A stretch of DNA of 64,000 nt from an uncultured virus (IMG/VR IMGVR_UViG_3300043570_003132) (IMGVR_UViG_3300043570_003132:1-64000); one strand, 5' to 3'. Shown: positions 8,239 to 43,530, counted from the first letter of the stretch. Numbers and translations are program-made. Notes: generated from the letters alone by a model not told the origin.

Positions 8239-9696
8239 TTATTTTATTTTCGCTTCTAAAGCTTCAACACGATTTAATAATTCTTTGTTTGTTTGAATTA
8301 ACAATGCAACTAATTTTTCGTATTTAACAGCCATATAACCGTTGTCTCTTGTTGTTACAATTTCAGGTAAAACTGCGTCAATTTCTTGTGCAATAACCCC
8401 TATATCGTGACCTTCGTTCTCATGAACACCTGGCATTTCCTTCCAATCGAAGTAATAACCATTTATTTGTTTTAAGATATCTAAAGAATTTTCAATTGGT
8501 GTGATGTTTTCTTTTAGTCTTTCATCAGAACCGTAGAATGCAATAACGTCATTTGTTGCTCTAATTAAACCTGTGGTTGTTGGTGTTGATGTACCCACAC
8601 CTAACGCTCCTGCCACATATAGTGTTGTTCCGTTAAATGTTAAATTTGCTTCACTATTTAGGGTAACTCCACCCGCACTTGTCATTACACGGTCATCACT
8701 TGCGTTTGTAATTGTTGTTGTACCAGAAGAACCTGAAGAACCGTTAGATCCTGAAGAACCTGAAGTTCCTGAAGAACCGTTAGCTCCTGAAGAACCTGAT
8801 GTTCCTGAAGAACCACTAGATCCTGATGTTCCTGAAGAACCGTTAGATCCACTAGAACCTGAAGAACCGTTAGATCCACTAGAACCTGAAGTTCCTGAAG
8901 ATCCACTAGATCCTGAAGAACCTGAAGTTCCTGAAGAACCGTTAGATCCACTAGATCCTGATGTTCCTGAAGAACCTGAAGAACCGTTAGATCCTGAAGA
9001 ACCTGAAGTTCCTGAAGAACCGTTAGATCCACTAGATCCTGATGTTCCTGAAGAACCTGAAGAACCGTTAGATCCTGAAGAACCTGAAGTTCCTGATGAA
9101 CCGTTAGATCCACTAGAACCAGAAGAACCTGAAGTTCCTGATGAAGCGGCAGTATATGATGTTCCATTAATGAATAATGAACCAGTCACAACCATACTAC
9201 CACTAACAGCCAAACTACCTGTGATAGATTGACTACCTGTAATATTTTGACTACCTACTATCGTACTTTGACTTGTTCCTATAGAACCTGTTGGAGGAAG
9301 TGCAAGACCTACTGCGGCCAAACTTGCTGAAGTTTGTACAACTTGAGCACCTACTTGTATTGTACCATCAGAGTTTGTACTGATAGCTTTAATTCCACCA
9401 ATAAAGATAGATCCTGTTGATACGTAGATGTCCTTCCACCAATGTGTTGGGTCACCCAAATCGTAAGTATTAGTAACGGCAGGGATTATTGATCCACTAA
9501 TTGTTTGGTTAGCGTTAAATGTGTTACTACCTGTGGTTGCAAAACGAGCGGAACCTGTTGTGTTTAGGGCCGAAGCGTTTGATGTTGTACCACTAATGGT
9601 TGCATTTATTGTTCCGTCTACGGTAAGATCTCCAAAAAAACGAGCCGAGCCCGATACATTTAGTGATCCAGAGACATTTGCGTCAAATATTTTCAT
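8239..9696 (-). CDS. Tail fibre-like protein with Ser/Gly triplet repeat and C-terminal Peptidase S74 intramolecular chaperone
   Basis: YDLGDPTHWWKDIY fibre motif; (S/T)(S/N)G repeats; SDERLKENI...GVIAQEI...VKYEKLVALLIQ...coiled-coil end. Confidence 0.88.
   Translation of the reverse strand: MKIFDANVSGSLNVSGSARFFGDLTVDGTINATISGTTSNASALNTTGSARFATTGSNTFNANQTISGSIIPAVTNTYDLGDPTHWWKDIYVSTGSIFIGGIKAISTNSDGTIQVGAQVVQTSASLAAVGLALPPTGSIGTSQSTIVGSQNITGSQSITGSLAVSGSMVVTGSLFINGTSYTAASSGTSGSSGSSGSNGSSGTSGSSGSNGSSGSSGTSGSSGSNGSSGTSGSSGSNGSSGSSGTSGSSGSNGSSGTSGSSGSSGSSGTSGSSGSNGSSGSSGSNGSSGTSGSSGSSGTSGSSGANGSSGTSGSSGSNGSSGSSGTTTITNASDDRVMTSAGGVTLNSEANLTFNGTTLYVAGALGVGTSTPTTTGLIRATNDVIAFYGSDERLKENITPIENSLDILKQINGYYFDWKEMPGVHENEGHDIGVIAQEIDAVLPEIVTTRDNGYMAVKYEKLVALLIQTNKELLNRVEALEAKIK
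8722..9144 (-). repeat. 9-bp-unit coding repeat: 47 X-Y-Gly triplets (SSG/TSG/SNG)
   Basis: Counted from the translation; includes a perfect 81-bp tandem duplication (8930-9010 = 9011-9091). Confidence 0.95.
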
Positions 9697-15287: not shown

Positions 15288-15315
15288 AATATAATGAAAA
15301 TATGTGAAAAATCAA
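15288..15315 (-). promoter_or_regulatory. Sigma70-like promoter TTGATT-N16-TATATT
   Basis: Minus-strand tttgatttttcacatattttcattatattatcattaATG. Confidence 0.55.
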
Positions 15316-16124
15316 ATCAAATTTTGTTTATTTTTTGGTAAATAATTTATATAACTTGGGAAATTTTTTGATATAAAATCATGTAGTTTATTTGCATAGG
15401 TCTTATTATGGTTAGGCCCTGGATGTCCATTATCCACACCTAAATCTAAATATTTCCCATAATCACCATCAAATCTGTTGAGTTCATTATGATCTATCGA
15501 TGTTATTTCTCTAACATTCCAACCATTCCATACCCAATTACAATTTTTAGATTCTAAAAAATATTTTATTAATAAATGATTTTTATACCAATTTACGGTA
15601 TCCTCATTATAATTTTGTAAATAAGTTAAATATTCTTGTGTTTTAATACCATCATCAGTTTCTTTTAAATAACCCCAAGAAGCCGTTGGCATGAACGGTT
15701 CAATACCACAATCTTTAGTATATATTTCTCTTCTTAAAGGTGAAGGATACATTATAAATATTAAATCAGGTTTTATTACATCATAATACGTTAATAAACA
15801 TCTAACAATGAAATCATTACTTCTACCGCCAGCACCAAAATTAAAATTAACACCATTTGGTATCAATGATGTGAATTGAGCTGGCCAAGTTTCATGATCA
15901 TTAACCGCAACACCTTCGGTATTTGAACATCCAAATGACATAATTTTAAACCCTTCTCTTTTAATACTATCACCTCTAAATCCTAATTCATTATATGTGT
16001 ATGTACATAAACCTGTGTTGTCTGTACCTGATGTTTTAAATATTTTGTTTTTTCGTTCACCTAATTTAAACTTGTACGATGAGATTTCAAATTCATTAGG
16101 GTCCCAATATTTTAGTGGATTCAT
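15312..16124 (-). CDS. SGNH/GDSL-like hydrolase or acyltransferase
   Basis: YNELGFRGD, FGCSNTEG, NFGAGGRSND, D-x-x-HP (DNGHPGP). Confidence 0.7.
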   Translation of the reverse strand: MNPLKYWDPNEFEISSYKFKLGERKNKIFKTSGTDNTGLCTYTYNELGFRGDSIKREGFKIMSFGCSNTEGVAVNDHETWPAQFTSLIPNGVNFNFGAGGRSNDFIVRCLLTYYDVIKPDLIFIMYPSPLRREIYTKDCGIEPFMPTASWGYLKETDDGIKTQEYLTYLQNYNEDTVNWYKNHLLIKYFLESKNCNWVWNGWNVREITSIDHNELNRFDGDYGKYLDLGVDNGHPGPNHNKTYANKLHDFISKNFPSYINYLPKNKQNLI

Positions 16125-16621
16125 ATTAATTTATTTGTTTCTATTTTTATATGTTCGTTTTCTAAAAACCATAATAAAGAATATCGTACACCTTCTAAAA
16201 TTGGTGTTATTTCATGGTCTATTCTTACATCAAATAAATATGTATTCCCAATAACTTTATCTAATGTAATTTCATTTGGGTTATACAATTTAAAGTCACC
16301 TCCTTCAAAATCACCATTTAATAAAACTCCCACTGCATATAATCTATTATTTCTAATATCATTATGTTTTCCAAACCAATCACCTTTTACAAATTTATGA
16401 AAATGTATAACTTCTTTATTTTTTTTTATCCGTATGTTTGATTGTTCTTCAAAAAATGTTTTAAGTTTATCAAACAACCATTTCGTTTCCAACGAATATG
16501 TAATTGATTGTGAATTATATTTTCTATCACTCATTATCCAATTTTTAATATGGGTGTCGTTATACGATATTATAGATTCACACTCCTCTTTATTAAATAA
16601 GACTTGTTCCTTTATTAACAT
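16121..16621 (-). CDS. 2OG-Fe(II) oxygenase (prolyl hydroxylase-like)
   Basis: KHND, LNGDFEGGDF, HEITPILEGVRYSL. Confidence 0.85.
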   Translation of the reverse strand: MLIKEQVLFNKEECESIISYNDTHIKNWIMSDRKYNSQSITYSLETKWLFDKLKTFFEEQSNIRIKKNKEVIHFHKFVKGDWFGKHNDIRNNRLYAVGVLLNGDFEGGDFKLYNPNEITLDKVIGNTYLFDVRIDHEITPILEGVRYSLLWFLENEHIKIETNKLI

Positions 16622-17153
16622 TTATTCTATATTTTTCTCCGTAAGGAAAATTTTTATTTTCTAATTCAACCATATTTAAATAATCTAATATTTTTTGAAA
16701 ACCATTATTGTAATATAGTTCTTCATATGATATATTAAAATAATCTTTATTTAAATAATTTTCTTTTAATCCGTTTTTGATTTGATTAAAATATGATACA
16801 TCTCCGTCTTTTATTAAATTTTCTTTAAATACCCATGCTTTATCCCAATTATTTGTTTTATTAGCATTTAACCAAGATTCACTTTGTTCACTTATATTTT
16901 CTCTATATAAAATAATTACCTTATCTGATATTTCTATTAATTCTGAAAAATCTGTTTTAATATCATATGTTTCTTTAATTAAAATGTGTGGTGTTTTATA
17001 TTCCCACAATTTTGGTGATACACCATGTTTATACCACTTCCAATTTGGACTTGTTATGGGTTCAAATAATGTGGTAAAATTTTTATTACTAAAAAACCAA
17101 TTAGTTAAGTTGGTTGATCCACTTCGTGGTTCTGCTAGTATTGTTATAACCAT
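16593..17153 (-). CDS. Sulfotransferase-like protein
   Basis: PRSGST 5'-PSB-like loop, LFEP, ILYREN, SYEEL. Confidence 0.7.
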   Translation of the reverse strand: MVITILAEPRSGSTNLTNWFFSNKNFTTLFEPITSPNWKWYKHGVSPKLWEYKTPHILIKETYDIKTDFSELIEISDKVIILYRENISEQSESWLNANKTNNWDKAWVFKENLIKDGDVSYFNQIKNGLKENYLNKDYFNISYEELYYNNGFQKILDYLNMVELENKNFPYGEKYRINVNKGTSLI

Positions 17154-17239
17154 TATTAAAAAATTGATGTTGTTAAAGCTCTCATATTAATTTATTTTAT
17201 AATTTTAATTATATGTTAAAAATTTATTACATAATAAAA

Positions 17240-17821
17240 TTATAATAATGTATTTTTTTCTTTTACATTAGAAACATTAAATTTAAAATTACCAGCAATT
17301 ACAATTCTATCTTTAGTTGAATTTGGGGAAATTTCAGGTTTGTGAAGTATTTTTGACGAAAATAAAAATAATTCGTCTTCTTCAGGTAAAACTGAAAATT
17401 CATTTTTATCAAAACTATATGAGAACATACCTTCATTACCATTTAAATTATTTGGCATTTGTACATAATAAGTGAAGGTTAAATCAGTTATAATGGAATT
17501 TTTATATTTTCCTCCCATTTTTAAATGGTCATGCCATAAAGATTGTTTTGTTTCATTTCTTGATATAAAAACCCAAGTCTCTAAACAATAATCTATAACC
17601 GTATCAATTATACCATTCTTTTTGAGATAATCAATTGCCTTTTTAGTTGCTATTTCTTTTATGAAAGTGATTTCCTTTGTGACCAATCCTAATGGAGTTT
17701 GTATACCAGGAGAATCATAATCACCTGTTTGGGATGAATATAAATTAATATTTTTTTTAAGTTGACTAATTAATATTTGTTTATCGTATGGATAATCTAT
17801 TTTATATTTTTCTATTTTCAT
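17240..17821 (-). CDS. Putative 2OG-Fe(II) oxygenase
   Basis: WHDH, TFTYYVQMP, P-EE-DELFLF...LHKP...RIVIAGN. Confidence 0.75.
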   Translation of the reverse strand: MKIEKYKIDYPYDKQILISQLKKNINLYSSQTGDYDSPGIQTPLGLVTKEITFIKEIATKKAIDYLKKNGIIDTVIDYCLETWVFISRNETKQSLWHDHLKMGGKYKNSIITDLTFTYYVQMPNNLNGNEGMFSYSFDKNEFSVLPEEDELFLFSSKILHKPEISPNSTKDRIVIAGNFKFNVSNVKEKNTLL

Positions 17822-18444
17822 ATTATACTTTTATTATTTTTAAAATCTACAATTGGTTCATCTATATTTAAAAGTTTATGTAGTTTAACATAAAAATCAT
17901 GGCACCCTTTCCAACCTGGATGCCAATCTATTGGGTCACCTCCTTCATCTGCAATAGAAGTTACTTTTATTAATTCTATAAACTCTTTTGTTTTTTCATA
18001 AAACTCATCGTTCCATGTTACAAATATTGGTTGGTGGTGGTTATAAAACATTTTTATTTTCTTAAGAAATAAAATTTCATCGTCTCGTTCACCATTTAAC
18101 CAACTATTTGTTTCTTTAATTCGTAATTCAAACAGTTTTTTTGCAAATAATTTATCCTTATACCATTCCCAATTTAAATATTTTGAATTATGATTTATTT
18201 CTCTTTCCCCAAAATATCTTCTTGGGAATCTTGATGGGGATGTAAAAACTATTATGATTCTATCACCATTTGTATAATTTGGTATATTTCCTGTTTGGTA
18301 TAATATAGAGTGATTATCAGCTCCAAATTTTCCAAATTTAATTACGTTATAATGATTGGATAGATAGTCCGTCCAATGCATTTTAGGTACTTCCCAATCA
18401 ACAAAACTATCACCACAAATATATAAATTAGATTTTTGTTTCAT
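17818..18444 (-). CDS. SGNH-like protein
   Basis: ICGDSFV, GKFGADN, DWHPG. Confidence 0.7.
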   Translation of the reverse strand: MKQKSNLYICGDSFVDWEVPKMHWTDYLSNHYNVIKFGKFGADNHSILYQTGNIPNYTNGDRIIIVFTSPSRFPRRYFGEREINHNSKYLNWEWYKDKLFAKKLFELRIKETNSWLNGERDDEILFLKKIKMFYNHHQPIFVTWNDEFYEKTKEFIELIKVTSIADEGGDPIDWHPGWKGCHDFYVKLHKLLNIDEPIVDFKNNKSII

Positions 18445-19127
18445 TACACTAATCTCATATTTTTGGTGAAGGGCTTTTCAAAAACATCCCAAACCCATTT
18501 TTTTAATTCATCATTAACTTCAATTTTATTTTTTATTTTTGATGTTCCATTCATTTTTTTAATTTTTAATACTACACCAAATTTTTCATATATTAAATTT
18601 TTGAATTTATCTATTTCGGAAATATCAAATTCATAATCACATTTTGTGTTATCTGTCCAATAATTCTTACATGCAAATATCGATAACGTATCGGGTAAGT
18701 TTTTATTTATTACATTAAAAAATTTACTATATTCTTTTTGTATTTTATATTCATTATCACAATATATTGCATCTGCTAAATTTTTATTAAAATATTCATA
18801 AATAAAGTTATTATCAATATCCGACCAATTATATTTTAATTCGTTTCTATGAAGATGATTTGATATTTCAAAAAAATATTCCAATGCACTATACCATCTG
18901 TCAAACCAATTTCTTGTGATACAACAAGTTTTTTGAAAACCAAATTCTTCTAATAAGAAGTTTTTTCTAAAATGAAAATGGTGGTTTGTATTTATATTGG
19001 GGTAGGGTTCTTTAGATGTTAGATTTATTTGTAATTGATTATTATTTTTTAATGAATCTTCTATTGAGACAGACGCACATCTTGGAATTGAAACCCAAAT
19101 AAGTTGATTGTTAATAAGAATTGACAT
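18444..19127 (-). CDS. Sulfotransferase family 2-like protein
   Basis: WVSIPRCASVSI (cf. HIPKxAGTS), ITRNWFDRWYSA (cf. RxPxxRxxS). Confidence 0.7.
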   Translation of the reverse strand: MSILINNQLIWVSIPRCASVSIEDSLKNNNQLQINLTSKEPYPNINTNHHFHFRKNFLLEEFGFQKTCCITRNWFDRWYSALEYFFEISNHLHRNELKYNWSDIDNNFIYEYFNKNLADAIYCDNEYKIQKEYSKFFNVINKNLPDTLSIFACKNYWTDNTKCDYEFDISEIDKFKNLIYEKFGVVLKIKKMNGTSKIKNKIEVNDELKKWVWDVFEKPFTKNMRLV

Positions 19128-19411
19128 TAAATAATTTTTTCATTATTTAATTTTTTTGCAAAAAACAACTTGTCAACTTCTTCCCATTTTCCAATCGGGC
19201 ATGGATTGTTATTTTTAGAATAAATTTTTTTCATTAATGGACATCCACATAAATCACAAACTATACCTAATTTAAATTTTTTTATACGTTCTTTTTTGTG
19301 TTCACAAGAATTACAAATTTCTGAACGTTTTTGTGCAAGGGACGCTTCTGCGTCAGATGGGTTTGCTGCTGTTATCCATGCGGATACTATTTCTAATAAA
19401 TCTAAACTCAT
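19127..19411 (-). CDS. Small Cys-rich metal-binding protein (DUF6171-like)
   Basis: R-x-x-ICNSC...CDLCGCPL..K......CPIGKW. Confidence 0.7.
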   Translation of the reverse strand: MSLDLLEIVSAWITAANPSDAEASLAQKRSEICNSCEHKKERIKKFKLGIVCDLCGCPLMKKIYSKNNNPCPIGKWEEVDKLFFAKKLNNEKII

Positions 19412-19449
19412 TGATTAAATATAACTAATTAAACGATAGGTGTAATTTT

Positions 19450-19536
19450 TTAAGAATTTTCGTTAATAATTAATGCACCGATTTGGGTCATTAAATTATT
19501 CATTTCTAATATTTCTTGTTCTGTTATTGTATTCAT
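19450..19536 (-). CDS. Unannotated 28-aa ORF
   Basis: MNTITEQEILEMNNLMTQIGALIINENS*; fills the gap between the Hint gene and the Cys-rich gene; amphipathic helix pattern. Confidence 0.5.
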   Translation of the reverse strand: MNTITEQEILEMNNLMTQIGALIINENS

Positions 19537-19557
19537 AATATAAATTTTAATAGTTTT

Positions 19558-21093
19558 TTAGAGTTGTAGACATCTATTTGAATAATATCCACAAGCACCT
19601 GTTGCCGAACAAACTTCATACATCTTATCACATCCACCAGACCCTACTCCAATTGAATTACATGGTGCACAATATGAATTGTGTTCTACTGCGATATATG
19701 ATGATACGGTTGCAGAATCACCATCTGTTATGGTTAGGAAAATATGTTCGTCTTGTACACCTATTATATATCCACTTAATACTTCGGTTTCGTCTTGTAT
19801 AGATATCACAGTTTTTTCATTAAATGAAATAGTATCATAATTACCAACATTTATTAATAATAATATATCCCCTATTTGTAAATTTGATGTAGTTTGTGTG
19901 TTTATATCTTCCCCAATTGTTGCCCACATAACATTGTTATTTCTTTTTATTAAATAAACAGAATTTGATGTATCTTTCCAATTTGTTTCGTCACTAAAGT
20001 TTAGTGTTGTTAATTTAACTGAAACATCAATTCTTTTTTTAAATGTTATTACATTGGTACTAAATGATGAATTTGAAAGAAGTTCATTATAATCAACGTT
20101 ATATGTCCTCAATTCGTTGGCCTCAGTTATGTTAGGTTGATTTTCATATAGTCTAATTGTTTTAACAGTATCACCAACCTGTAAATCTTGCCCTGTTTTA
20201 AAACTACCATCTGCCATTACAACTAAATCCGTATCAAGTAATTTAGGTTTCACCAACCTTTGTGTCCCTGTTAAGTATCCGTTTCTATCTACATTAGAAA
20301 TTTGATGTGTTAGACTATCATATGAGTTGTCATTTAATTCTTGCATAACCTTTAAATTACCATATTTTTTGTATGCACAGATAGGAATCGATTCTAATGT
20401 TGGTGGGTATAAGATATTTAAGGAACGAATAATTGTAATACGTCCTTCGTTTAATTTTTCCTCATTAAACAAATATTCCATTAAGAAATAATCTTCATTT
20501 ACATTATTTGTAATAACTTCATTTAATTCTTCAATATTTGAAACTTTAAAAAATTTTGGGTATACTTCCCTATCATATATTGGAAATCTTGCTTTTAAAA
20601 TAAAGTTTGGGTGTATACCATTATTAGGTATGGTCGTTATATTTGATATAACTTGTGAAGTTTCATCCATATATGCAAACTTAAACCCAAAATTTTCATT
20701 CTGAAACAGTTTTAAAAAATTTACTTTATCTTTGCAGTAAGTTTCGTCAACGATTGCTGAAACATCGTAGGCACTTCTTACAATTAAGTGATTATCACTA
20801 TCTTCAATATATGGAATTGTAATACCCCCTAAAGTTTCAATAAATTCATATTCTACCCCCAAATTAACACAAGCCTCATTAAATTTTTCACTTACTTGTG
20901 GAATTCCACCGATAAATGTGACCTTTACAAAATTGTTGTTTGATACAAAGCTTATAAATTGTGTCAAATTTATGGCCCCCTCAGTCTCAGCCGCTAATCT
21001 CACATCCCAACCAATATTGGTGTTTATCTCAATTGGTCTTAAATCACCATTTGAATTGTATGCAAAATCTGTCCCTAATAGCAATGTTCTCAT
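19558..21093 (-). CDS. Circularly permuted ATP-grasp-like domain + Hint domain + C-terminal 39-aa six-Cys peptide
   Basis: GTDF...GDLRPIEINTN at N-terminus, then FILKARFP, FLMEYL, IIRS; Hint start KLLDTDLVVMADGSFKTGQDLQVGDTV; Hint end YIAVEHN followed by SYCAPC...RCLQL. Confidence 0.75.
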   Translation of the reverse strand: MRTLLLGTDFAYNSNGDLRPIEINTNIGWDVRLAAETEGAINLTQFISFVSNNNFVKVTFIGGIPQVSEKFNEACVNLGVEYEFIETLGGITIPYIEDSDNHLIVRSAYDVSAIVDETYCKDKVNFLKLFQNENFGFKFAYMDETSQVISNITTIPNNGIHPNFILKARFPIYDREVYPKFFKVSNIEELNEVITNNVNEDYFLMEYLFNEEKLNEGRITIIRSLNILYPPTLESIPICAYKKYGNLKVMQELNDNSYDSLTHQISNVDRNGYLTGTQRLVKPKLLDTDLVVMADGSFKTGQDLQVGDTVKTIRLYENQPNITEANELRTYNVDYNELLSNSSFSTNVITFKKRIDVSVKLTTLNFSDETNWKDTSNSVYLIKRNNNVMWATIGEDINTQTTSNLQIGDILLLINVGNYDTISFNEKTVISIQDETEVLSGYIIGVQDEHIFLTITDGDSATVSSYIAVEHNSYCAPCNSIGVGSGGCDKMYEVCSATGACGYYSNRCLQL

Positions 21094-21143
21094 ATGTTTT
21101 GTTTATACTTTTTTATAAATGATATATCGATTATTTTTATTTA

Positions 21144-21172
21144 AATATACAAATAATTATTCAATTTATCAA
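21144..21172 (-). promoter_or_regulatory. Sigma70-like promoter TTGATA-N17-TATATT upstream of Hint gene
   Basis: Minus-strand ttgataaattgaataattatttgtatatt. Confidence 0.5.
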
Positions 21173-21198
21173 ATCTATTTTACTTTATCTATAAATAG

Positions 21199-21419
21199 TT
21201 AATTTTTCTCTTTTAGTTCATATTTTATTCATTTATACCAAATTATCTCATATATATAGTATTAAGTGGGGTTTACATACTAATTTCACAACCTTTTTTT
21301 GGGGGGGTCTCAATCTTAATAGATCCACTTTATCCACCATATTGTTAAGAATTAGGTTAAAATACTTATAAGACGATATAAAATAGTTTTGAATATATGT
21401 CTATTTTTTATACCGTCAT
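21199..21419 (-). pseudogene. Decayed copy of the DUF2061-like gene at 23134-23361
   Basis: Aligns by eye over its length (caatcttaat.gatccactt..ccaccatatt.ttaagaa; tacttataa.acgatat; catttataccaaatt) with internal stops and frameshifts. Confidence 0.8.
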
Positions 21420-21895
21420 AATAATCTTTTATTCTTTGTGATCCAAATGGCCATAATTTCTCTACAACCCGATGTTATTTCTTTAACCTCATGTTGTTCG
21501 GTTTGACCATTAAAGTTAACTAAATCTCCCTTTTTAAAATTTACCAATTCATTATTAACATATAATTCACCTCCTTCAAAACTATCGTTTAACATAATCA
21601 AATACGTTTTACTTGACTTTACATCTATATGATTTCTAGCATAATAACCTGTCTCATATTTAATATAATGTAATGAATATATAACCTCATCTTCCTCCAA
21701 TTTTATATATTTTATTATAGTACTAACTAATATTTGATTACTTAAATCACAATAAAATATTTCTTTTAAATGAACTATTTTCTCAAAAGACTTACCATGA
21801 TATGATATTACATCATTATTTTGATTACCAAAATTATAATATTTTAATATTATATCAATATCGTCTTGACTTATATAATTTTTAAAAATATTCAT
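21416..21895 (-). CDS. 2OG-Fe(II) oxygenase
   Basis: NHID, LNDSFEGGEL, HEVKEITSGCRE. Confidence 0.85.
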   Translation of the reverse strand: MNIFKNYISQDDIDIILKYYNFGNQNNDVISYHGKSFEKIVHLKEIFYCDLSNQILVSTIIKYIKLEEDEVIYSLHYIKYETGYYARNHIDVKSSKTYLIMLNDSFEGGELYVNNELVNFKKGDLVNFNGQTEQHEVKEITSGCREIMAIWITKNKRLL

Positions 21896-21898
21896 TTA

Positions 21899-22459
21899 TT
21901 AAATTAAATTTAATTTTTGAATTATTTGACTTTTTTCAATTGGCATCACAATAGACCATCTTTCCCCATTTGTAATTTCTTTTATTTCGTGCCATATTCT
22001 ACAATGATATCCCAACGCCGTACCAGGTTCTTTATTTATTATAATCTCGTTACCGGAATCATCCCACGTAATGTATTCACCACCATCATAGTCATCATTC
22101 AATTGTATCCCTAAATTATATCTTCTTTCTTCGTATCCTTTAATTAAATCTATATGCTTTGTAAAATGGTCGCCAATTGTATATCTATGCAAAGTACATA
22201 TAAGTGTTTTAAAAGTTTTGTCAATTTTAACTTCACTAACTTCACTAAACCAATTAATTAATTTATCATAAAACCAATTGGTTTCATTATTATTTAATAT
22301 GGTGTACACTTCATATGACATTAAATTTTGATTACTTTTTATTCTCTGTCCATCGATAAGTTTTGACGGAAACCAACCTTCTAATTCTGTATATTTTTTG
22401 TGGTATTGTATTATAGTTTGACATTCCTCTTTTGTAAATATTTTTTCTTGGTAAATCAT
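21899..22459 (-). CDS. 2OG-Fe(II) oxygenase
   Basis: KHID, LNDDYDGGE, HEIKEITNGERWSIV. Confidence 0.85.
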   Translation of the reverse strand: MIYQEKIFTKEECQTIIQYHKKYTELEGWFPSKLIDGQRIKSNQNLMSYEVYTILNNNETNWFYDKLINWFSEVSEVKIDKTFKTLICTLHRYTIGDHFTKHIDLIKGYEERRYNLGIQLNDDYDGGEYITWDDSGNEIIINKEPGTALGYHCRIWHEIKEITNGERWSIVMPIEKSQIIQKLNLI

Positions 22460-22477
22460 ACATACTACTTTAATTTA

Positions 22478-22506
22478 AATATACAATAATTTTTTGTAAT
22501 TACCAA
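22478..22506 (-). promoter_or_regulatory. Sigma70-like promoter TTGGTA-N17-TATATT
   Basis: Minus-strand ttggtaattacaaaaaattattgtatatt. Confidence 0.5.
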
Positions 22507-23066
22507 TTCTTTCCATTATAATGTGGTTCTATCATTAGTTTAAGCCACTTCTCCTCTTCACTAATCAATTTTTCTAATTGAATAGAGTGTTCGTGTGGTA
22601 AGGTACTTAATGCCGTTTCTATGGAATTGTATTTAGTTGGTAGTTTAAATTCATATTGGGTCGGTGACCATTGTAATTTGGAATCAGTTGGAGTAAGTTG
22701 AGACAGATCTCGAAGTTTATAAAATGAAAATCCTAACTTTTTATGTAATGGATAAAGTTTTTTATATAGATACGGATACCAATGTACGGAACCACCTTCT
22801 ATCATATTGGTTACAATATCAATTACGTCCAATTGAGGTTTGAATGATAAATCAGTTACTGTACCAGATAGAAAATGTTCCATTATAGGTCTATATATAA
22901 AAGTAGTACCACTATGTATATGTTTCTCTAAATCAGTTATGTCAAATCCAAAAGTATCTATACGATTTTTCACATCTAACCCCTCTAACCAACGGGTACC
23001 ACATTTTAAAGGTGCGATTATATCTAATCCGTTTTTATATATACAACGTTTAAGTCTAATTTTCAT
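22500..23066 (-). CDS. Hypothetical protein, possibly sulfotransferase-like
   Basis: APLKCGTRWL and FIYRPIMEHFLSG resemble degenerate 5'- and 3'-PAPS-binding motifs. Confidence 0.5.
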   Translation of the reverse strand: MKIRLKRCIYKNGLDIIAPLKCGTRWLEGLDVKNRIDTFGFDITDLEKHIHSGTTFIYRPIMEHFLSGTVTDLSFKPQLDVIDIVTNMIEGGSVHWYPYLYKKLYPLHKKLGFSFYKLRDLSQLTPTDSKLQWSPTQYEFKLPTKYNSIETALSTLPHEHSIQLEKLISEEEKWLKLMIEPHYNGKNW

Positions 23067-23133
23067 TATAGGTTAGTTACAGTATAATACTTTTATTTGT
23101 AATTCCCCCCACCATTTCTTTATACCATTATAA

Positions 23134-23361
23134 CTATGTTTTGGATTTTTTGAAATCTTTTAATCCAAATTTTATCCATTTATACCAAATTCTTTCGTGA
23201 ATATAGTATTGGATGGGTTTATATATTAATTCTACTACCCCAAAAGCCGTTCCAATCTTAATTGATCCACTTACCCACCATATTATTAAGAACCCAATAA
23301 GGGTACTTATAATACGATATGATATGGTTTTAGCGATGTGTCTCTTCCTTTCTACTATCAT
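23134..23361 (-). CDS. DUF2061-like small membrane protein
   Basis: RHIAKTISYRIIST...YYIHERIW. Confidence 0.8.
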   Translation of the reverse strand: MIVERKRHIAKTISYRIISTLIGFLIIWWVSGSIKIGTAFGVVELIYKPIQYYIHERIWYKWIKFGLKDFKKSKT

Positions 23362-23909
23362 AATAATGTTTTAGATTTTTTGGAATTGTTTTTATCAATA
23401 ACTTTCCAATCAATTAATAAATGAATTCTATCAGTTTCTCCATTATTGATAACCGAATGTGGTTTATCACTATTATTTATTTCCCAAATCTCACCTTGTT
23501 TCATATTAATCTCTTCACCATCAACTTCAAATATGCACATATCGTTGGTTACAATTGGAATGTGTATTCTGTTTCTAGAATCAAAATATATATGTGCATC
23601 GGTATGTGGTTTTATTTTTTTAGATTTTGGTAAATTTATTAGAATTGCAGTTTCAATATGACCTTCTCCTATTTTTGTTGTTAAAATATCACCGATACTA
23701 TCCAAATCATTTTTAAAAATATTATAATCTTTCCAATATTTTAATTGTGTTTTTTCGTTATCCCATAAAATCGGAATTGTAAATGTTTCCGCGTGGACAT
23801 GATACGATTCTTGTCTAAATGTAAATTCATTCCAATCTAAATCTTTTAGATGATTTGATATATTGCTAACATCATATCTTTCGTAATATTTAAAATTAAA
23901 ATCTATCAT
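23358..23909 (-). CDS. Aspartyl/asparaginyl beta-hydroxylase-like oxygenase
   Basis: IKPHTD, RIHIPIVTN, GEIWEINN, HSVINNGETDRIHLLID. Confidence 0.85.
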   Translation of the reverse strand: MIDFNFKYYERYDVSNISNHLKDLDWNEFTFRQESYHVHAETFTIPILWDNEKTQLKYWKDYNIFKNDLDSIGDILTTKIGEGHIETAILINLPKSKKIKPHTDAHIYFDSRNRIHIPIVTNDMCIFEVDGEEINMKQGEIWEINNSDKPHSVINNGETDRIHLLIDWKVIDKNNSKKSKTLL

Positions 23910-24292
23910 TTATCATTCATATTAGGATATTCGATAATATCTCCGTTAGAGTCAATATACCCGTTTCTGATACTTGTACCACTAATTTTAGCAACATCTT
24001 CAGGTGGTTCGTGGTAAATAACATCATACCCAACCCCTCTACCATAATTGATACTTTCAATATCGGGAATAATAGATATATTAATTTTATGTGAATTTTC
24101 CTTAAAAAACGGTTCGTCCGCCAAATCCATCATAACCTGTTGAGCGGTTTTTGGGTTATTCTCATCTGTCTCCACATTTCTAATGGCTACCCACACATTC
24201 TTTCCTTTCTCTAATTGTTGATTAAGTAACCACTCGTGACCCTTGTGCCAATTCTGCCATCTGCCCACATACATCGCATATTTTTTATTCAT
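23906..24292 (-). CDS. HxGH nucleotidyltransferase (cytidylyltransferase-like)
   Basis: GRWQNWHKGH, ISGTSIR. Confidence 0.8.
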   Translation of the reverse strand: MNKKYAMYVGRWQNWHKGHEWLLNQQLEKGKNVWVAIRNVETDENNPKTAQQVMMDLADEPFFKENSHKINISIIPDIESINYGRGVGYDVIYHEPPEDVAKISGTSIRNGYIDSNGDIIEYPNMNDK

Positions 24293-24726
24293 AGTGTTAA
24301 TTTTTTTAATATTTCATAATAAGAATCTACTTCGGTTTTACCTGTTGTATCCAAATCTATAAAGTTTTCGGTCGGTGGTTCGTAGTTCTCCACATGAAAC
24401 TGATTTCTACCTCTATCCTCTGTCGTGTGTACATAAACCTCAATAACGTCTTCTCTATTCTTAAAGTCCTCCCTTTGGTCTTTATATGGTGAAACTAAGG
24501 ATACCAAGACCGTAAACCCCTTTTTATTCAAAAATTGAGCAATGTCTTGTGCTCTTTCAATATTTTTTCTCCTTCCCACCTCAGAATAGTCCTTATTTTG
24601 GAAGATATCCCTCAAATCGTCACCATCTATAATAATAGTGTTCTCCTTACCAAAATGGGTTAGGAGGTTGTTTACTAACGTAGTCTTACCTGATGCGGGT
24701 TGTCCGGTGAACCAATATATTGACAT
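24289..24726 (-). CDS. cysC: Adenylylsulfate (APS) kinase
   Basis: WFTGQPASGKTT P-loop, IDGDDLR, YSEVGRRKNI, LVSPY, YEPP. Confidence 0.88.
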   Translation of the reverse strand: MSIYWFTGQPASGKTTLVNNLLTHFGKENTIIIDGDDLRDIFQNKDYSEVGRRKNIERAQDIAQFLNKKGFTVLVSLVSPYKDQREDFKNREDVIEVYVHTTEDRGRNQFHVENYEPPTENFIDLDTTGKTEVDSYYEILKKLTL

Positions 24727-29978: not shown

Positions 29979-31252
29979 TTACATAAATTTTCAAAAAAAA
30001 GATAATCATCATCAACTATCGTTAAAAGATCTAAAACTTTTTGTTTATTACTTTCAAATCGTTCCTTGTTGTTTTTATAAAAATTTATTAGTTCTTCTTT
30101 TATATTTGATAACCTTACAATTTCATCTACAAACATACCCAAACGTTTTCTTTGGTCTGGTTCCTCATCATAACTATGATTCAAAATATCATCGTAGAAA
30201 TCTAATTTATATTTTTCCTTTACCATCTTAATGTGGTTATGTGTTGATAAAATAACAGGCATTTGGTAATAGTAAAATGGTTTAAATGATTTTTCAGATA
30301 TGTGTATATTATTGTTTGAATCTAAAAACATTGATTCCGTTATAATATTAACATATGTGTTCTCATAATTTTTAGGATATTCAGGTGTATGCATCCATAT
30401 CGGAAAATCTTTATTATTAACCTCACTAAATTCGTGAAACCAATCTTTTTCAACCTCGTAATCACTTTTCTTAAAGTGTAATTCATTGAAGTATTTCATC
30501 TCCTCTTCCAACATAACTCTATCCTCTTTTGAAAATAATGGGTAGTAATAACTTTCTATTGGTCTACAGTCATATCCGGGTACTAATGACCAATTAATAT
30601 CATCCAATAAATTATATTTTTTTAAGAAACACAATAAACCATATCTGTGAATTTTAGGGGATTTGTTAAATAATTGAAAGAACTTACCCTCTTTTATCGG
30701 TTCAAAATCACAACCGCCCACTTTTTTCAAGACCTTTGTGGATGAATGTGGAACAAATCTTATTGTGTGTACATTTATTTGTGATTGATGTTTTTCTTTG
30801 TATTCGGGTAATTTATAATTGTTATTTACGATGTAAATTTGTTTCTCGTTTATACCTATTCCTCGAACAAAATCTAAAATTTTCTTAAAACTTTCTTCAC
30901 AATCAGGTTCGTGTTCGGTTAGGAACATAACAAAGAAATTTGTACATTTTTTTAAACAATCAACGACACCGTCATTAAAAGGTGTTATACCATTCTCAAA
31001 AAAATCACTAATAAATTCTCCCCCATGATTTATAATATAATAGTAATTTTGTGTTGGGTTATTACTCACTTCAGACATTGTACAGGTTCTTTGTATAAAT
31101 TTATCACCATATGATGTATCATCTATAAAATGTTTGATTAAATTCCTTGAATCACAAACTCCTCTTTTTGGATAACGAAATATTATATTGGGAATTGGTT
31201 CTTCGGTGTATTCATCAAAATTATCATAAACCAAATTTAAAACTTTCTGCAT
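29975..31252 (-). CDS. Uncharacterised family protein (NIITES...ISEKSFKPF motif), possible GT-B glycosyltransferase
   Basis: NKSPKIHR, YVNIITES, HISEKSFKPFYYYQMP, HSYD; paralogous to 3 other genes in the window. Confidence 0.6.
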   Translation of the reverse strand: MQKVLNLVYDNFDEYTEEPIPNIIFRYPKRGVCDSRNLIKHFIDDTSYGDKFIQRTCTMSEVSNNPTQNYYYIINHGGEFISDFFENGITPFNDGVVDCLKKCTNFFVMFLTEHEPDCEESFKKILDFVRGIGINEKQIYIVNNNYKLPEYKEKHQSQINVHTIRFVPHSSTKVLKKVGGCDFEPIKEGKFFQLFNKSPKIHRYGLLCFLKKYNLLDDINWSLVPGYDCRPIESYYYPLFSKEDRVMLEEEMKYFNELHFKKSDYEVEKDWFHEFSEVNNKDFPIWMHTPEYPKNYENTYVNIITESMFLDSNNNIHISEKSFKPFYYYQMPVILSTHNHIKMVKEKYKLDFYDDILNHSYDEEPDQRKRLGMFVDEIVRLSNIKEELINFYKNNKERFESNKQKVLDLLTIVDDDYLFFENLCK

Positions 31253-33789
31253 TATATTAAATTTTCAAAAAACGAATAATCTTTTTGGATGTACTCCAAT
31301 AAATTTATAATTATTTTTTTATTATTTTCGAATCTATCTTGATTATTTCTATAGAATTCAGTAAATAAATCTTTATTGTCATTTATTCTTTTTATTTCAT
31401 CAATAATCATTATGAGTCTTTTTTTGTGGTCAGATTCACCATCGTAACTATGATCTATAATATCATCAAAAAAATCTAATCCATATTCTTCTTTCATTTG
31501 TTTTACATGTCCTTTAGAGGCAACAAATATTGGAAACTGATAATAAAAAAATGGTTTAAAGGATTTTTCTGAGATATGAACGGTATTTGGTAATCTATTG
31601 AATACAGATTCTGTTGTAATATTAACGTATGAGTTTATATATGTATCCACAATTTCAATCTCAGTTAATTTTTGTGATAAATTACGCTTTTCATTATCAT
31701 CATCTTTATTATAAGTAAACATATTATTTTCATAATCACTTAATTTATAATTAACTTCTAAAAGATATTTAAATAAATTTTCTAATTCTTTATCTTCATT
31801 TATAACGTCTTCCATAAAATCAGGATGAATTGTTTCGTTCTTATTTGGAATAAATGACCAATTAACATGATCTATTAAATTATATTTCATTAATAAACAC
31901 AATAACGCCGTTCTATGTGGTTTAATTGATTTATTAAATGTCATAAAAAATTTACCTTGTTTATTTGTCGTAAATTCACATCCACCTCCGTCTCTCATAT
32001 CCCTAATTTTACAAAAAAGTAAAAAATTAATCTTATAAACATTAATATCACTATTATATTTCTTTTTATATTCTTCTAATTTTGAATTGTTATTGATACA
32101 ATATATTTGAGACAAATTTACATTTTTTTTAATGAAGTAATTGTTGATTAAAACAAATACATTTTCATCAATAGGTTCATGTTCAGTGATTAATAATAAC
32201 TTAAAATTTTTATATTGCTTTAATTTTTCAATTACCTCATTAGTTATTACAAAATCTTCATTTTCTTTAGTTATAAAAGTGGGGTTAATGTGATGATTAA
32301 TTATGTAAAAAAAATTACCATATTCATTAATTTCATTTAATTTATATTTTTTTATTAAAAATTCTCCCTTTTTTACATTTACTAAAGTATGATTTAATAA
32401 ACTATCTCCATCGTTAAAGGCCCATTTATTATCGTAGTATATTGAACCATTTGAAATTGGGTTATTGTTTTGCCAAACATCGTATACCAAATTAAATGAT
32501 TTTATATTAAGGTCCTTCCAAACATTGTTGATCAAATTTGATATTTCTTTATTAATATTGTTTGATCCATATTTTAATCCATAAAGTCTTATAAAATTTT
32601 GTTGGTTATGGTTACAAACTTCTTTCATTTCTTCTCTAATTGAAGATAATTCTTCTTTAGATTTTTGGCTATAATCAATTAATATTTTAATAATTTTATT
32701 AATTCTAATAGTTTCATCATTGTCGTTGTCATAATCTTCGTTAAACCATTTATCAAAGGTTTTATACCCAATTGATTTAAGAAATTTTAACGTTCCTTTA
32801 TTTCCTAATATTATAAATGGATGACCAACCATAATTGGTTTCCAAGTTTTTTCTGATATGAATAAAGTGTCTTCATATGTTAACGTTTCAGATATTACAG
32901 AAATAAATGTTTTATCATAATCTTCCGTTGTTATATTACATGCCAAATTATAATGTAAATTTGGTGCCGATTCAATGTGAATTGGTGAATTATCTTTTAA
33001 AAAATTAAAATGATTAATATCATTCTCAGATATTAAATAAATTTCAGGATCGTACATATTAACATCCCCTAAACTCACAAATCCTCTATTAAAAATATTA
33101 TTTTTTAGTAATTCAATTAAAAATCTAACTCTGTGTGGTCTTGGGTTTCTATTATACATTAAAAATAAATTTCTATCATCAATAGTTTTATACTCAACAA
33201 TTTTCTCATATGAAAATTTATTCCACGCCTCAAAATCTAAAATAGGTTCAACATTTATATGTAATTCTTTATTTCTTACAATTTCTTTACTCAACAAATT
33301 ACCACACGCATAATAGACCGAAAATGAAGGTAAATTAGATTCCTTTCTCCATTTTTCTATTATTTCAAAATCATCGTTTCCTTTAGAACCTGAATATCCT
33401 TCATATGTTAAAAATAATAATATTTTACATTTACCATTTCTAACGTCCTCCAAATATTTCTCAGATACACATTTAAACCCAATATCATAATTATCCCTAA
33501 AAAAAGACATATTATAAATATTTATTATGTATATGTGTTTATTGTTACCTATTTTATCTATTGTCAGATATGTAATATTATGGTTATATATTGAGGGGCA
33601 CACTTTACCTTTGAAGAAATCCGAACTAAACATTTCACCATTTTCAGAAAAAATATCCCAATCTCCCCACATAAGGGGTCTTGATATTCTTTTTAATTCT
33701 TTGATGTACCAACTTTTAGAAGATCCATTAGGTCTATAAAAATCTAATATACTATCCCATTCTTCTAAACTACATATAATTTTGTCCAT
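31252..33789 (-). CDS. Tandem two-domain member of the same SEKxxKP family
   Basis: Two copies: NRNPRPHR...ISETL...FISEKTWKP and NKSIKPHR...NITTES...HISEKSFKPFFYYQFP; start re-called at MDKIIC (33789) because the longer start overlaps the promoter. Confidence 0.65.
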   Translation of the reverse strand: MDKIICSLEEWDSILDFYRPNGSSKSWYIKELKRISRPLMWGDWDIFSENGEMFSSDFFKGKVCPSIYNHNITYLTIDKIGNNKHIYIINIYNMSFFRDNYDIGFKCVSEKYLEDVRNGKCKILLFLTYEGYSGSKGNDDFEIIEKWRKESNLPSFSVYYACGNLLSKEIVRNKELHINVEPILDFEAWNKFSYEKIVEYKTIDDRNLFLMYNRNPRPHRVRFLIELLKNNIFNRGFVSLGDVNMYDPEIYLISENDINHFNFLKDNSPIHIESAPNLHYNLACNITTEDYDKTFISVISETLTYEDTLFISEKTWKPIMVGHPFIILGNKGTLKFLKSIGYKTFDKWFNEDYDNDNDETIRINKIIKILIDYSQKSKEELSSIREEMKEVCNHNQQNFIRLYGLKYGSNNINKEISNLINNVWKDLNIKSFNLVYDVWQNNNPISNGSIYYDNKWAFNDGDSLLNHTLVNVKKGEFLIKKYKLNEINEYGNFFYIINHHINPTFITKENEDFVITNEVIEKLKQYKNFKLLLITEHEPIDENVFVLINNYFIKKNVNLSQIYCINNNSKLEEYKKKYNSDINVYKINFLLFCKIRDMRDGGGCEFTTNKQGKFFMTFNKSIKPHRTALLCLLMKYNLIDHVNWSFIPNKNETIHPDFMEDVINEDKELENLFKYLLEVNYKLSDYENNMFTYNKDDDNEKRNLSQKLTEIEIVDTYINSYVNITTESVFNRLPNTVHISEKSFKPFFYYQFPIFVASKGHVKQMKEEYGLDFFDDIIDHSYDGESDHKKRLIMIIDEIKRINDNKDLFTEFYRNNQDRFENNKKIIINLLEYIQKDYSFFENLI

Positions 33790-41498: not shown

Positions 41499-42044
41499 AT
41501 GAGTTCACCAGAATATACCCCATATAAGGACGCACTAACAAATTCAATGACTTACCTTGGTCAACAGGAAGATACTGTATTTATAGGTCAACAGGTTCTT
41601 TGGCACGGTAATCCAATGAGTACGACCATTGGTGATGTTCCTAAAGAAAAACTAATTGAACTTCCCGTTATGGAAGAATCTCAAATGGGTATGTCATTAG
41701 GAATGGCTATGGCTGGTAAGTTTGTCGTTACATTCTACCCTCGTTGGGATTTTGTAATATGTTCAACAAATCAATTAGTTAACCATGTTGATAAAATTGG
41801 ATTAATGAGTCAAGGTAAATGGCAACCTAATATGATTATTCGTTTAGGTAAGGGTTCTGATAAACCGTTAGATCCAGGTCATCAACACAGAGGTAATTAC
41901 TTTGAGGAATTCAAATCCATGTGTCCTAATATTAATTTTATTGATTTAAAGGATTGGAACGATATTGAATTACATTATAAAAACGCATACGAAAAAGGTG
42001 GTATTCATGTAATTGTGGAATATCCTGAATTATATTATATTTAA
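41499..42044 (+). CDS. TPP-dependent E1 beta / transketolase pyrimidine-binding domain (no C-terminal domain)
   Basis: FIGQ, ELPVMEESQMGMSLGMA, NQLVNH, GHQH, VEY. Confidence 0.85.
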   Translation: MSSPEYTPYKDALTNSMTYLGQQEDTVFIGQQVLWHGNPMSTTIGDVPKEKLIELPVMEESQMGMSLGMAMAGKFVVTFYPRWDFVICSTNQLVNHVDKIGLMSQGKWQPNMIIRLGKGSDKPLDPGHQHRGNYFEEFKSMCPNINFIDLKDWNDIELHYKNAYEKGGIHVIVEYPELYYI

Positions 42045-43112: not shown

Positions 43113-43530
43113 TTTCTTCTTTTGTTGGCCAACTAACTTCCCAATCTTTAAAATCAGCCGCAATACAATCAATTTTATAATCTTTTCTTCCACCAACAAC
43201 TTCTTGTATTTTATTCTTGGCGGTATTTCTTATACCATTTAATCCGTGAGTTAACGATAACATACTTGGTCCTTCTTTTCCACTTCTTACATTAGATTCG
43301 TTATGCCAAATGTGTAAATTCATTTGTGCACATACAATAACCGCTCTCAACATCTCACCAGTTATAACAACATCTTTCTCACTTAAAATAAGTTGTATGT
43401 CGTGTGTGATATCAGCAATTTCTTTAGCGTATTCTTCTTTATGTTCAGTTATAAACACTTCTTTTAATTGTACAATCGAAAGTCTATCAATTAACTCCGA
43501 TAATGTTGGTAAAAATCTTCTTTGTTCCAT
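43102..43530 (-). CDS. Hypothetical helical protein (ELIDRLSI motif)
   Basis: 142-aa ORF coupled to neighbours. Confidence 0.65.
   Translation of the reverse strand: MEQRRFLPTLSELIDRLSIVQLKEVFITEHKEEYAKEIADITHDIQLILSEKDVVITGEMLRAVIVCAQMNLHIWHNESNVRSGKEGPSMLSLTHGLNGIRNTAKNKIQEVVGGRKDYKIDCIAADFKDWEVSWPTKEENEG

Follow-up and report, generated by a model that had tools for sequence, protein, structure and literature searches.

A lysine-rich C-terminal tail shared by unrelated tailoring enzymes around an ATP-grasp/Hint gene of an uncultured virus

RESULTS

Ten genes of one array end with the same short tail

The stretch of DNA analyzed in this study (the window) covers the initial 64 kb of a 118.7-kb record of an uncultured virus (IMG/VR IMGVR_UViG_3300043570_003132, here G000; 31% GC). 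Between positions 15312 and 23909, it carries an array of genes whose products have different folds and share a short C-terminal tail, in which a K/N-rich stretch is followed by [LI][LIV] at the very end. Such ends were found in 10 of the 13 genes of this range, compared with 5 of the 110 genes in the rest of the record (Fisher p = 5e-9). At internal positions of the genes in the range, the [LI][LIV] class occurred in 95 of 2607 cases (3.6%; binomial p = 1e-12). The genes were called with our own crude open reading frame (ORF) caller (ATG start, longest first), and the counts may be diluted by a small number of spurious ORFs; the C-termini of the called genes are independent of the choice of start.

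All ten tagged genes (i.e., genes encoding the tail) of the array are located on the minus strand, and the ten tails quoted in a preliminary description of this DNA were all present in their translations. A 270-aa enzyme without a Pfam family (15312–16124) ends with ..PKNKQNLI (tail codons at 15315–15335), and Leu-Ile also closes 8 of its 12 orthologues in the related loci L002–L011. The adjacent 166-aa 2-oxoglutarate (2OG)-Fe(II) oxygenase (16121–16621, ..IETNKLI) carries its tail on a ~15-residue extension beyond the catalytic core. The tail of the 186-aa protein at 16593–17153 (..NKGTSLI), from a family tagged in 9/9 members, is encoded where this gene overlaps the beginning of the next one by 29 nt. 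These are accompanied by a 193-aa protein with a weak match to 2OG-FeII_Oxy_3 (17240–17821, ..KEKNTLL; E = 0.017), which is separated from the next gene by an 86-nt gap, by a 208-aa protein (17818–18444, ..KNNKSII in translation), and by a 227-aa protein (18444–19127, ..TKNMRLV) whose family is tagged in 9/11 members of a smaller set and 51/53 of a larger one. A 94-aa CxxC..CxxC protein (19127–19411, ..LNNEKII) is encoded directly downstream of the gene that we call the hub; its family is tagged in 38/52 members, and there are others that end with KTLF or KTLY. The remaining three tagged genes encode a 159-aa 2OG-Fe(II) oxygenase (21416–21895, ..TKNKRLL; 322 nt to the next gene), a 186-aa 2OG-Fe(II) oxygenase (21899–22459, ..IQKLNLI), and a 183-aa Asp/Arg beta-hydroxylase-like protein (23358–23909, ..KKSKTLL).

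The hub gene ("Family 3", 19558–21093, minus strand) encodes an untagged 511-aa protein (..RCLQL) that consists of an ATP-grasp domain, a hedgehog/intein (Hint) domain of the bacterial intein-like (BIL) type and a Cys-rich end. The other untagged genes of the array, also on the minus strand, encode a 188-aa protein (22500–23066, ..NGKNW in translation) and a DUF2061 membrane protein (23134–23361, ..KKSKT; family tagged in 0/24). In relatives, DUF2061 ends with ..GLKDKK or ..YGLKK; in the window, its ..KKSKT resembles the ..KKSKTLL of the preceding gene, and this junction looks like a copy made by recombination at tail-coding DNA. A second, decayed DUF2061 copy outside the tag set fills the 322-nt "gap" at 21094–21415 on the same strand; its frame is broken by stops, and it contains a C7A7 run. 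Relatives have an intact DUF2061 at the same place, just upstream of the hub gene. Beyond the array, the untagged pair at 23906–24726 (minus strand) encodes a 128-aa nucleotidyltransferase-like protein and an adenosine 5′-phosphosulfate (APS) kinase (families tagged in 0/29 and 0/24); the two likely supply 3′-phosphoadenosine 5′-phosphosulfate (PAPS).

Four more tails, previously listed as similar endings elsewhere and all on the minus strand, were confirmed. They belong to an 845-aa protein (31252–33789, ..FFENLI), where the end is hydrophobic without the K-rich part and the family is tagged in 7/9 members, a 360-aa radical S-adenosylmethionine (SAM) protein (42030–43112, ..NKKLNII; family tagged in 33/36), and, by translation, a 321-aa (43530–44495, ..KKQNKLI) and a 428-aa protein (44495–45781, ..NKIKNLI). 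The tail is absent from the sugar operon at 1–6.8 kb and from the structural genes, as first noted.

Base composition and gene junctions do not account for the tail

The preliminary description named AT bias and stop/start overlap sequence as explanations that would undo its claim, and proposed comparing the terminal dipeptides with a null. Some features point in that direction: the genome has only 31% GC, A-ending codons are mildly favored near gene ends, and ATA is overused for the last Ile (178 observed, 130 expected), as is seen with ATA-TGA overlaps. However, pseudo C-termini, i.e., codon pairs preceding out-of-frame stops in the same DNA, fell into the [LI][LIV] class in only 40 of 508 cases on the plus strand and 41 of 552 on the minus strand (7–8%), compared with 77% at the real gene ends. 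AT bias is therefore no explanation, and the AT-rich pelagiphage HTVC008M lacks the tail altogether (0/15 genes).

Start/stop overlap is no explanation either, because every junction class includes tagged genes. Among 98 tagged genes, the junction to the following gene was an ATGA overlap in 17, TAATG in 19, a longer overlap in 5, and a gap of 0–15 nt in 29, of 16–60 nt in 14 and of >60 nt in 14. The same classes occurred among 227 untagged genes, 30 of which have the ATGA overlap. A Shine-Dalgarno sequence or A-rich leader of the next gene was rejected as the cause on the same grounds. Both controls rule out a composition or overlap artifact; the motif is real.

Constraint acts on the protein

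Relatives with the same island were taken from IMG/VR, and the motif was even clearer there. Starting from a set of 85 unique tails, a set of 415 unique tails was obtained, with the consensus K-x-K-[T/S/K/N]-L-I-COOH. The fourth-last residue was K in 202 and N in 101 tails, and the third-last was T in 131, S in 77, K in 76 and N in 57; these counts are not fixed by the rule by which the tails were selected. The second-last (L 309, I 88) and last residues (I 272, L 120) are partly fixed by that rule. The fifth- to seventh-last positions are K-rich.

Within these 415 tails, the second-last Leu was encoded by all six codons with the same usage as in the gene bodies (p = 0.77; observed/expected: TTA 218/209, TTG 33/36.5, CTT 26/26.6, CTA 26/29, CTC 4/3.5, CTG 2/4.5). 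The Ser residues were drawn from both the TCN and AGY boxes (p = 0.31), and the tails were followed by TAA (279), TGA (93) or TAG (43). The sole nucleotide-level bias was a mild excess of A-ending codons (besides ATA, ACA with 86 observed and 65 expected, and AAA with 195 and 178), a pattern consistent with ATA-TGA overlaps and with gene ends rich in A. Because of the codon freedom in the tails, a DNA motif resembling a promoter or late promoter was rejected. Since synonymous sites vary as freely in the tails as in gene bodies, and Ser is drawn now from one codon box and now from the other, the tail DNA is less conserved than the peptide. Thus, the constraint acts on the protein, and the initial proposal of protein-level selection is supported by the body-like codon use, the two Ser boxes at the T/S position and the three stop codons.

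The tail follows enzyme family and is confined to a phage clade

Two sets of loci were collected, all from related uncultured phages, so that locus counts are not independent events. Tagged enzymes used as bait gave 15 non-redundant loci, which we grouped into five lineages by bait and identity; L003, L005 and L006 (duplicates of L004) and L012, L013 and L015 (array cut by the contig end) were excluded. With the hub as bait, 80 of 210 relatives were kept and 79 loci (L041–L119) were examined, as L011 had been counted earlier; these include L041, which is the window's own DNA, and some near-duplicates. Clustering the 1259 unique ORFs from the 79 loci yielded 50 families of five or more members.

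Of these 50 families, 32 were never tagged and 11 were tagged in at least 70% of their members, in agreement with a smaller clustered set. High counts were obtained for the oxygenases (100/115), a 229-aa family (51/53), the radical-SAM family (33/36), a 186-aa family (33/34) and a 176-aa family (19/21). The hub (0/58), the 128-aa nucleotidyltransferase-like family (0/29), a carbamoyltransferase (0/26), the APS kinase (0/24) and DUF2061 (0/24) were never tagged. The tagged families of the window comprise 2OG-Fe(II) oxygenases, the Asp/Arg beta-hydroxylase-like protein and radical-SAM proteins; in relatives, they include a radical-SAM/SPASM protein, a Trp halogenase and a TibC-like heptosyltransferase, and sulfotransferase-like proteins also belong to the tagged set. 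Untagged island neighbors make nucleotide sugars and probably PAPS. The tail is thus restricted to tailoring enzymes and spares nucleotide-sugar, PAPS and structural genes, which bears out the earlier suggestion that it marks one functional set.

The tail is retained across lineages whose proteins have drifted below 30% identity. The 120 close orthologues of the 166-aa oxygenase all end with L[IL]. Among 125 full-length representatives, with identities down to ~28%, this end was found in 98, and most of the remaining ones are closed by LF, FI or TI. An alignment of 29 diverse members placed the end of the core at R146-x-S plus one strand, with the tail closing a ~15-residue extension. Outside the phage clade, cellular homologues were without the tail, as the preliminary description had proposed to check: four distant bacterial loci (a small sample from a seven-sequence alignment against GTDB genomes) end with ..GPQFR or ..GPHFR. 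Other phage homologues also lack it. No tail was found in the homologues of cyanophage S-RSM4 and a marine virus, or in the dioxygenase/halogenase clusters of HTVC008M and Syn9 (0/20 genes in the latter). In the rest of the 217-kb contig that also contains the window DNA (110 kb), 7 of 111 ORFs end with two aliphatic residues, and at most three of them are tag-like. The tails end 10- to 15-residue extensions past the catalytic fold that about a dozen unrelated tailoring-enzyme families have acquired, and they are specific to this phage clade.

One untagged family accompanies the tagged genes

In the loci retrieved with the tagged enzymes, the hub occurred once in each (15/15, all five lineages) and was the sole untagged family present in all 15; its identity across the lineages falls to 22–31%. 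In the converse search, 609 of 1626 ORFs within 8 kb of the hub were tagged (462 of 1285 after removal of identical genes). At least three tagged genes were found in 74 of the 79 hub loci, and none of the loci was devoid of them. In the five low-count loci, one of which is a second hub copy in a contig, the neighbors end with KTLF, KTFL, KTLY or KSLI. The last residue of the tail can hence be aromatic, since hub neighbors end with KTLF and KTLY. The link between hub and tail is tight.

The hub is composed of an ATP-grasp domain (residues ~1–275), a Hint/BIL domain (~284–472) and a hypervariable Cys-rich peptide (473–511). An AlphaFold2 model based on 72 homologues reached a mean predicted local distance difference test (pLDDT) value of 81 and a predicted TM-score of 0.78; an earlier model from 9 sequences was too poor (pLDDT 57) and was discarded. 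By Foldseek, the N-terminal domain matched ATP-grasp ligases of the glutathione-synthetase/glutathionylspermidine-synthetase/YjfC-YgiC kind (7uk6, i.e., YjfC, E = 1.7e-6; 8fbz, 6e-6; 7uk8, 2hgs, 2io9, 2vps and 3n6x), with a probability of 0.99–1.00 but a low target TM-score (0.21–0.37). Members of this fold class bind the free C-terminal carboxylate of a peptide, and YgiC and YjfC were reportedly identified in 2023 by Pederick et al. as peptide-spermidine ligases. Residues D9, E22-x-N24, R106, D110, K123, K167 and R223 are invariant in the alignment of the 72 sequences and are candidates for Mg/ATP binding.

The Hint domain matched BIL2 (6y75, E = 3.7e-8, TM 0.73), DnaB inteins and hedgehog (1at0). 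H471-N472 are invariant or nearly so, and by our own reading ..EHN precedes the Cys-rich end in 109 of 120 homologues. After this His-Asn pair come 30–45 residues with ~6 Cys, which differ in almost every one of the 120 homologues. The Hint fold starts with P-K-L-L-D-T-D, a position placed by eye. Because no conserved Cys/Ser/Thr nucleophile is found at its position 1, cleavage would be expected at the C-terminal side of the domain only. In a 910-aa variant (L036:5138–7870), three Hint domains in tandem come after the ATP-grasp domain, all of them with Cys as the first residue and ..HN at the end; other variants carry an S74-chaperone-like end.

No significant Pfam or NCBIfam family was obtained for the hub, and a PDB profile search returned only a weak Ataxin AXH match (E = 0.09). 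The ESM Atlas gave ATP-grasp clusters (0.89) and a viral Hint cluster (0.86), which we treat as leads only. No homologue was detected by tblastn in 50,697 GenBank phage records, which include the tag-free HTVC008M and Syn9. The hub appears to be an ATP-grasp/Hint/Cys-rich combination for which we found no description, and it seems to resemble closely a pretoxin-HINT module that carries a knottin-like payload.

Genome context and candidate readers of the tail

The window DNA is also present in a 217-kb IMG/VR contig (G001), which is 65% complete by CheckV, and a 335-kb relative (the contig behind L110) is rated complete. Pfam matches to gp23 capsid, gp20 portal, gp25, gp19, sheath, S77 prohead protease, family-B polymerase and gp32 identify the genome, as judged from its gene content, as that of a T4-like jumbo phage (a T4-type myovirus). 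The region gave no megablast match among GenBank phages, and no Rfam family was found in the window.

Domain scans covered 228 kb of phage DNA, comprising window ORFs (70 at E ≤ 0.01 and 12 at E ≤ 1e-3), 36 further ORFs of G000 (E ≤ 1e-3) and 104 ORFs of G001 (E ≤ 1e-4). A PDZ- or TPR-type receptor had been proposed as the reader of the tail; none was present among the ORFs scanned, with about one-third of the genome and the host outside the scan. For PDZ, this negative result applies to the ORFs of the window, G000 and G001 save one 1944-aa ORF that lay outside the scan. Among the scanned ORFs, Pfam also returned no encapsulin shell gene, and the only HK97-class capsid gene was gp23.

The search for Clp-type partners was productive, as the phage encodes both a ClpP and a ClpC-like ATPase. 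The former (G001 84025–84699, equivalent to G000 95490–96167; Pfam E = 1.4e-54) is of the cellular type, scoring 235 bits with the NCBIfam ClpP model versus 66 bits with the head-maturation type. A role as head-maturation protease was rejected on account of these scores and the separate S77 protease. The latter is a 689-aa two-ring ATPase (G001 193485–195554, L034:10485–12554) that lacks the N-domain and shows a UVR-like motif as well as a VGF loop. Among three long relatives (63–100% complete), ClpP was found in 3/3 and the Clp ATPase in 2/3, with 79–93% identity. In other tag-bearing fragments, all at most 49% complete, ClpP was found in 0/8 and ClpC in 0/4. The Clp genes are located 70–180 kb away from the island.

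Several other genes were observed. Very long collagen-repeat fiber proteins are encoded at 8239–9696 and 61633–63999 of the window and at G000 70839–81480, one of them with an S74 chaperone end, and their genes adjoin those of prolyl 4-hydroxylase-type oxygenases and GT7-like galactosyltransferases. These fibers may be an alternative substrate of the tagged enzymes. Genes for glutaredoxin, thioredoxin and a 360-aa classical AAA ATPase with an unclassified N-domain are adjacent at G000 81558–83234 (L018:17558–19234), a trio that may be relevant to the folding of Cys-rich products. Ribosomal protein S21, Hsp20 and PhoH are encoded at G001 182922–183113 (L033:18922–19113), 192985–193341 and 166207–166725, and NusG-like and sigma-70 proteins at G000 83578–84102 and 92782–93591. 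Proteins of 958 and 1787 aa (G000 65472–68348 and 109438–114801) share the identical C-terminus ..KSFCAEAP, and three paralogues of related contigs end with ..SSGHCGWR[TA]; shared, Cys-containing ends of other kinds thus occur on proteins that are likely structural.

DISCUSSION

We tentatively read the tail as a docking handle that would recruit tailoring enzymes to the ATP-grasp/Hint hub encoded at 19558–21093. The tail would dock each small, single-domain enzyme on the hub, so that all of them could reach one substrate, either the Cys-rich peptide, at a stage when the Hint domain still holds it, or a protein that is bound at this site. Such an arrangement would invert the usual logic, with the recognition element on the enzymes and not on a substrate leader. 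We favor docking because it would explain why only these enzymes are tagged and how minimal single-domain enzymes find a hypervariable substrate, and because the one constant untagged partner belongs to a fold class that binds peptide C-termini.

Several observations weigh against docking on the hub. The catalytic-type ATP-grasp residues E22, N24, R106, K123 and K167 are invariant, which suggests that the hub probably acts as an enzyme on a substrate of its own and is not a passive scaffold. Four tagged genes (31252, 42030, 43530 and 44495) lie 10–25 kb from the hub, and the co-occurrence of tag and hub is partly shared descent, since all loci come from related phages. In addition, the conserved phage Clp system could read such tails. 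Co-folding of hub residues 1–472 with the 166-aa oxygenase gave no answer (score 0.00 twice, without controls) and speaks neither for nor against docking.

[quoted passage not shown] The hub is similar in having a variable end after the Hint ..HN and radical-SAM/SPASM, halogenase and hydroxylase neighbors. Unlike in RiPPs, the recognition element appears to be on the enzymes, and the "leader" would be a 470-residue ATP-grasp plus Hint protein. Other short C-terminal peptides that address one partner are the cargo-loading peptides of encapsulins and the capsid-targeting tail of the HK97 prohead protease. As with encapsulin cargo, a short C-terminal peptide common to unrelated folds marks one set; the tag described here is, however, another and shorter motif, the phage capsid is of the gp23 type, and the S77 prohead protease is untagged. 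In T4, gp43, gp33 and gp55 have C-terminal tails that bind the sliding clamp. These, too, are unrelated proteins of a T4-type phage with a common hydrophobic C-terminal peptide docking on one hub, but the motif differs, the proteins serve replication and transcription and not tailoring, and no link to the clamp was seen here. Class I ligands of PDZ domains, defined as [S/T]-x-hydrophobic-COOH, are partly matched by the T or S located two residues before the hydrophobic end in 208 of 415 tails (T 131 + S 77, 50%). About half of the tails, however, have other residues there (K 76, N 57), and bacterial PDZ proteins are mostly periplasmic, whereas the tagged enzymes look cytoplasmic.

Clusters that combine multiple dioxygenases with halogenase, sulfotransferase and PAPS genes have been described in phages and bacteria, with Syn9 as an example, and share with the island the enzyme mix and the predicted peptide or collagen-like substrate (Iyer et al. 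2010, PMC2938197). In contrast, the parts of that paper at hand make no mention of a shared C-terminal tail, and the Syn9 cluster has neither tagged genes (0/20) nor, by tblastn of the GenBank phage collection that includes Syn9, a hub homologue. Likewise, our literature search found no account of this tail on phage tailoring enzymes.

A rather doubtful but serious alternative to docking, listed in the preliminary description beside docking and sorting, is that the tail is a degron, read by a Clp-type unfoldase (the phage ClpC-like ATPase with ClpP, or host ClpXP/ClpAP) for scheduled turnover of the enzymes. It draws on the resemblance to the ClpX C-motif-2 tag of MuA, CILEQNRRKKAI (..NRRKKAI), which likewise forms the very end of a protein made by a phage and is read at its free end by a host machine (PMC12723719). 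In both cases, a basic cluster precedes a small or hydrophobic residue and a C-terminal Ile (..RRKKAI in MuA versus ..KxKTLI here), and the tails have K/N at the fourth-last position and an L/I-I/L end. The phage also has its own cellular-type ClpP and 689-aa two-ring Clp ATPase, apart from the S77 prohead protease, and these genes are kept in long relatives. MuA, however, is a single protein, whereas here one motif, in which T/S-L-I is conserved, recurs in ~12 families. A degron would leave unexplained why only the tailoring enzymes surrounding the hub were chosen, and the preference for T/S (third-last) and Leu (second-last) exceeds the known needs of Clp degrons. The distance of the Clp genes from the island also argues against it; their absence from the other tag-bearing fragments is indecisive, given the low completeness of these. 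No ssrA-type end (LAA or Ala-rich) was found among the 415 tails, where Ala is outside the seven commonest residues at the last ten positions.

In another reading, which we regard as improbable, the tails would themselves be substrates: the hub ATP-grasp domain, whose fold class activates the terminal carboxylate of peptides, would activate the carboxylate of the terminal Ile or Leu and ligate it to a polyamine, to lysine or to the new N-terminus of the Cys-rich peptide freed by the Hint domain. If true, the phage would encode a system for the C-terminal ligation of proteins, akin to tubulin tyrosination or pupylation, and this ligation would be coupled to the production of Cys-rich peptides that are hypervariable and heavily modified.

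The tail as a generic peripheral membrane anchor, its polybasic part and two hydrophobic residues holding the enzymes at the anionic inner membrane near glycan- or lipid-linked substrates, is quite unlikely. Glycosyltransferase and sugar-modification genes do surround the island, and K-rich tails with hydrophobic residues, such as the C-terminal helix of MinD, are known to bind membranes. However, there are just two hydrophobic residues, the glycosyltransferases themselves are untagged, and a non-specific anchor needs neither the conserved L-then-I identity nor the preceding T/S nor the extreme-end position. Less plausible still is that the tail is a by-product of cassette shuffling, its coding DNA serving as micro-homology for gene swaps between phages and the peptide itself having no function. 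The content and order of the arrays do vary among relatives, and the ..KKSKT and ..KKSKTLL ends of DUF2061 and its neighbor hint at recombination at a junction. Nevertheless, it is the peptide and not the DNA that is better conserved, the tail persists in proteins of ~28% identity, and the same arrays hold untagged families. That AT bias or start/stop overlap sequence makes the tails is so improbable, given the controls above, that we set it aside.

Short terminal peptides that gather unrelated proteins on one partner recur as degrons, cargo-loading peptides and clamp-binding tails. The tail described here is present on about one-third of the genes near one hub gene, on ~12 folds and in hundreds of environmental phage contigs, and provides a ready bioinformatic marker of one functional set that includes several uncharacterized families. 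The ATP-grasp/Hint protein with its hypervariable Cys-rich peptide, located amid hydroxylases, a halogenase, radical-SAM and sulfotransferase-like proteins, is a compact and testable system. Should the tail be a degron read by the phage-encoded Clp protease, the phage would be timing its own enzymes. If it is a docking handle on the hub, it would be a portable seven-residue tag for enzyme recruitment.

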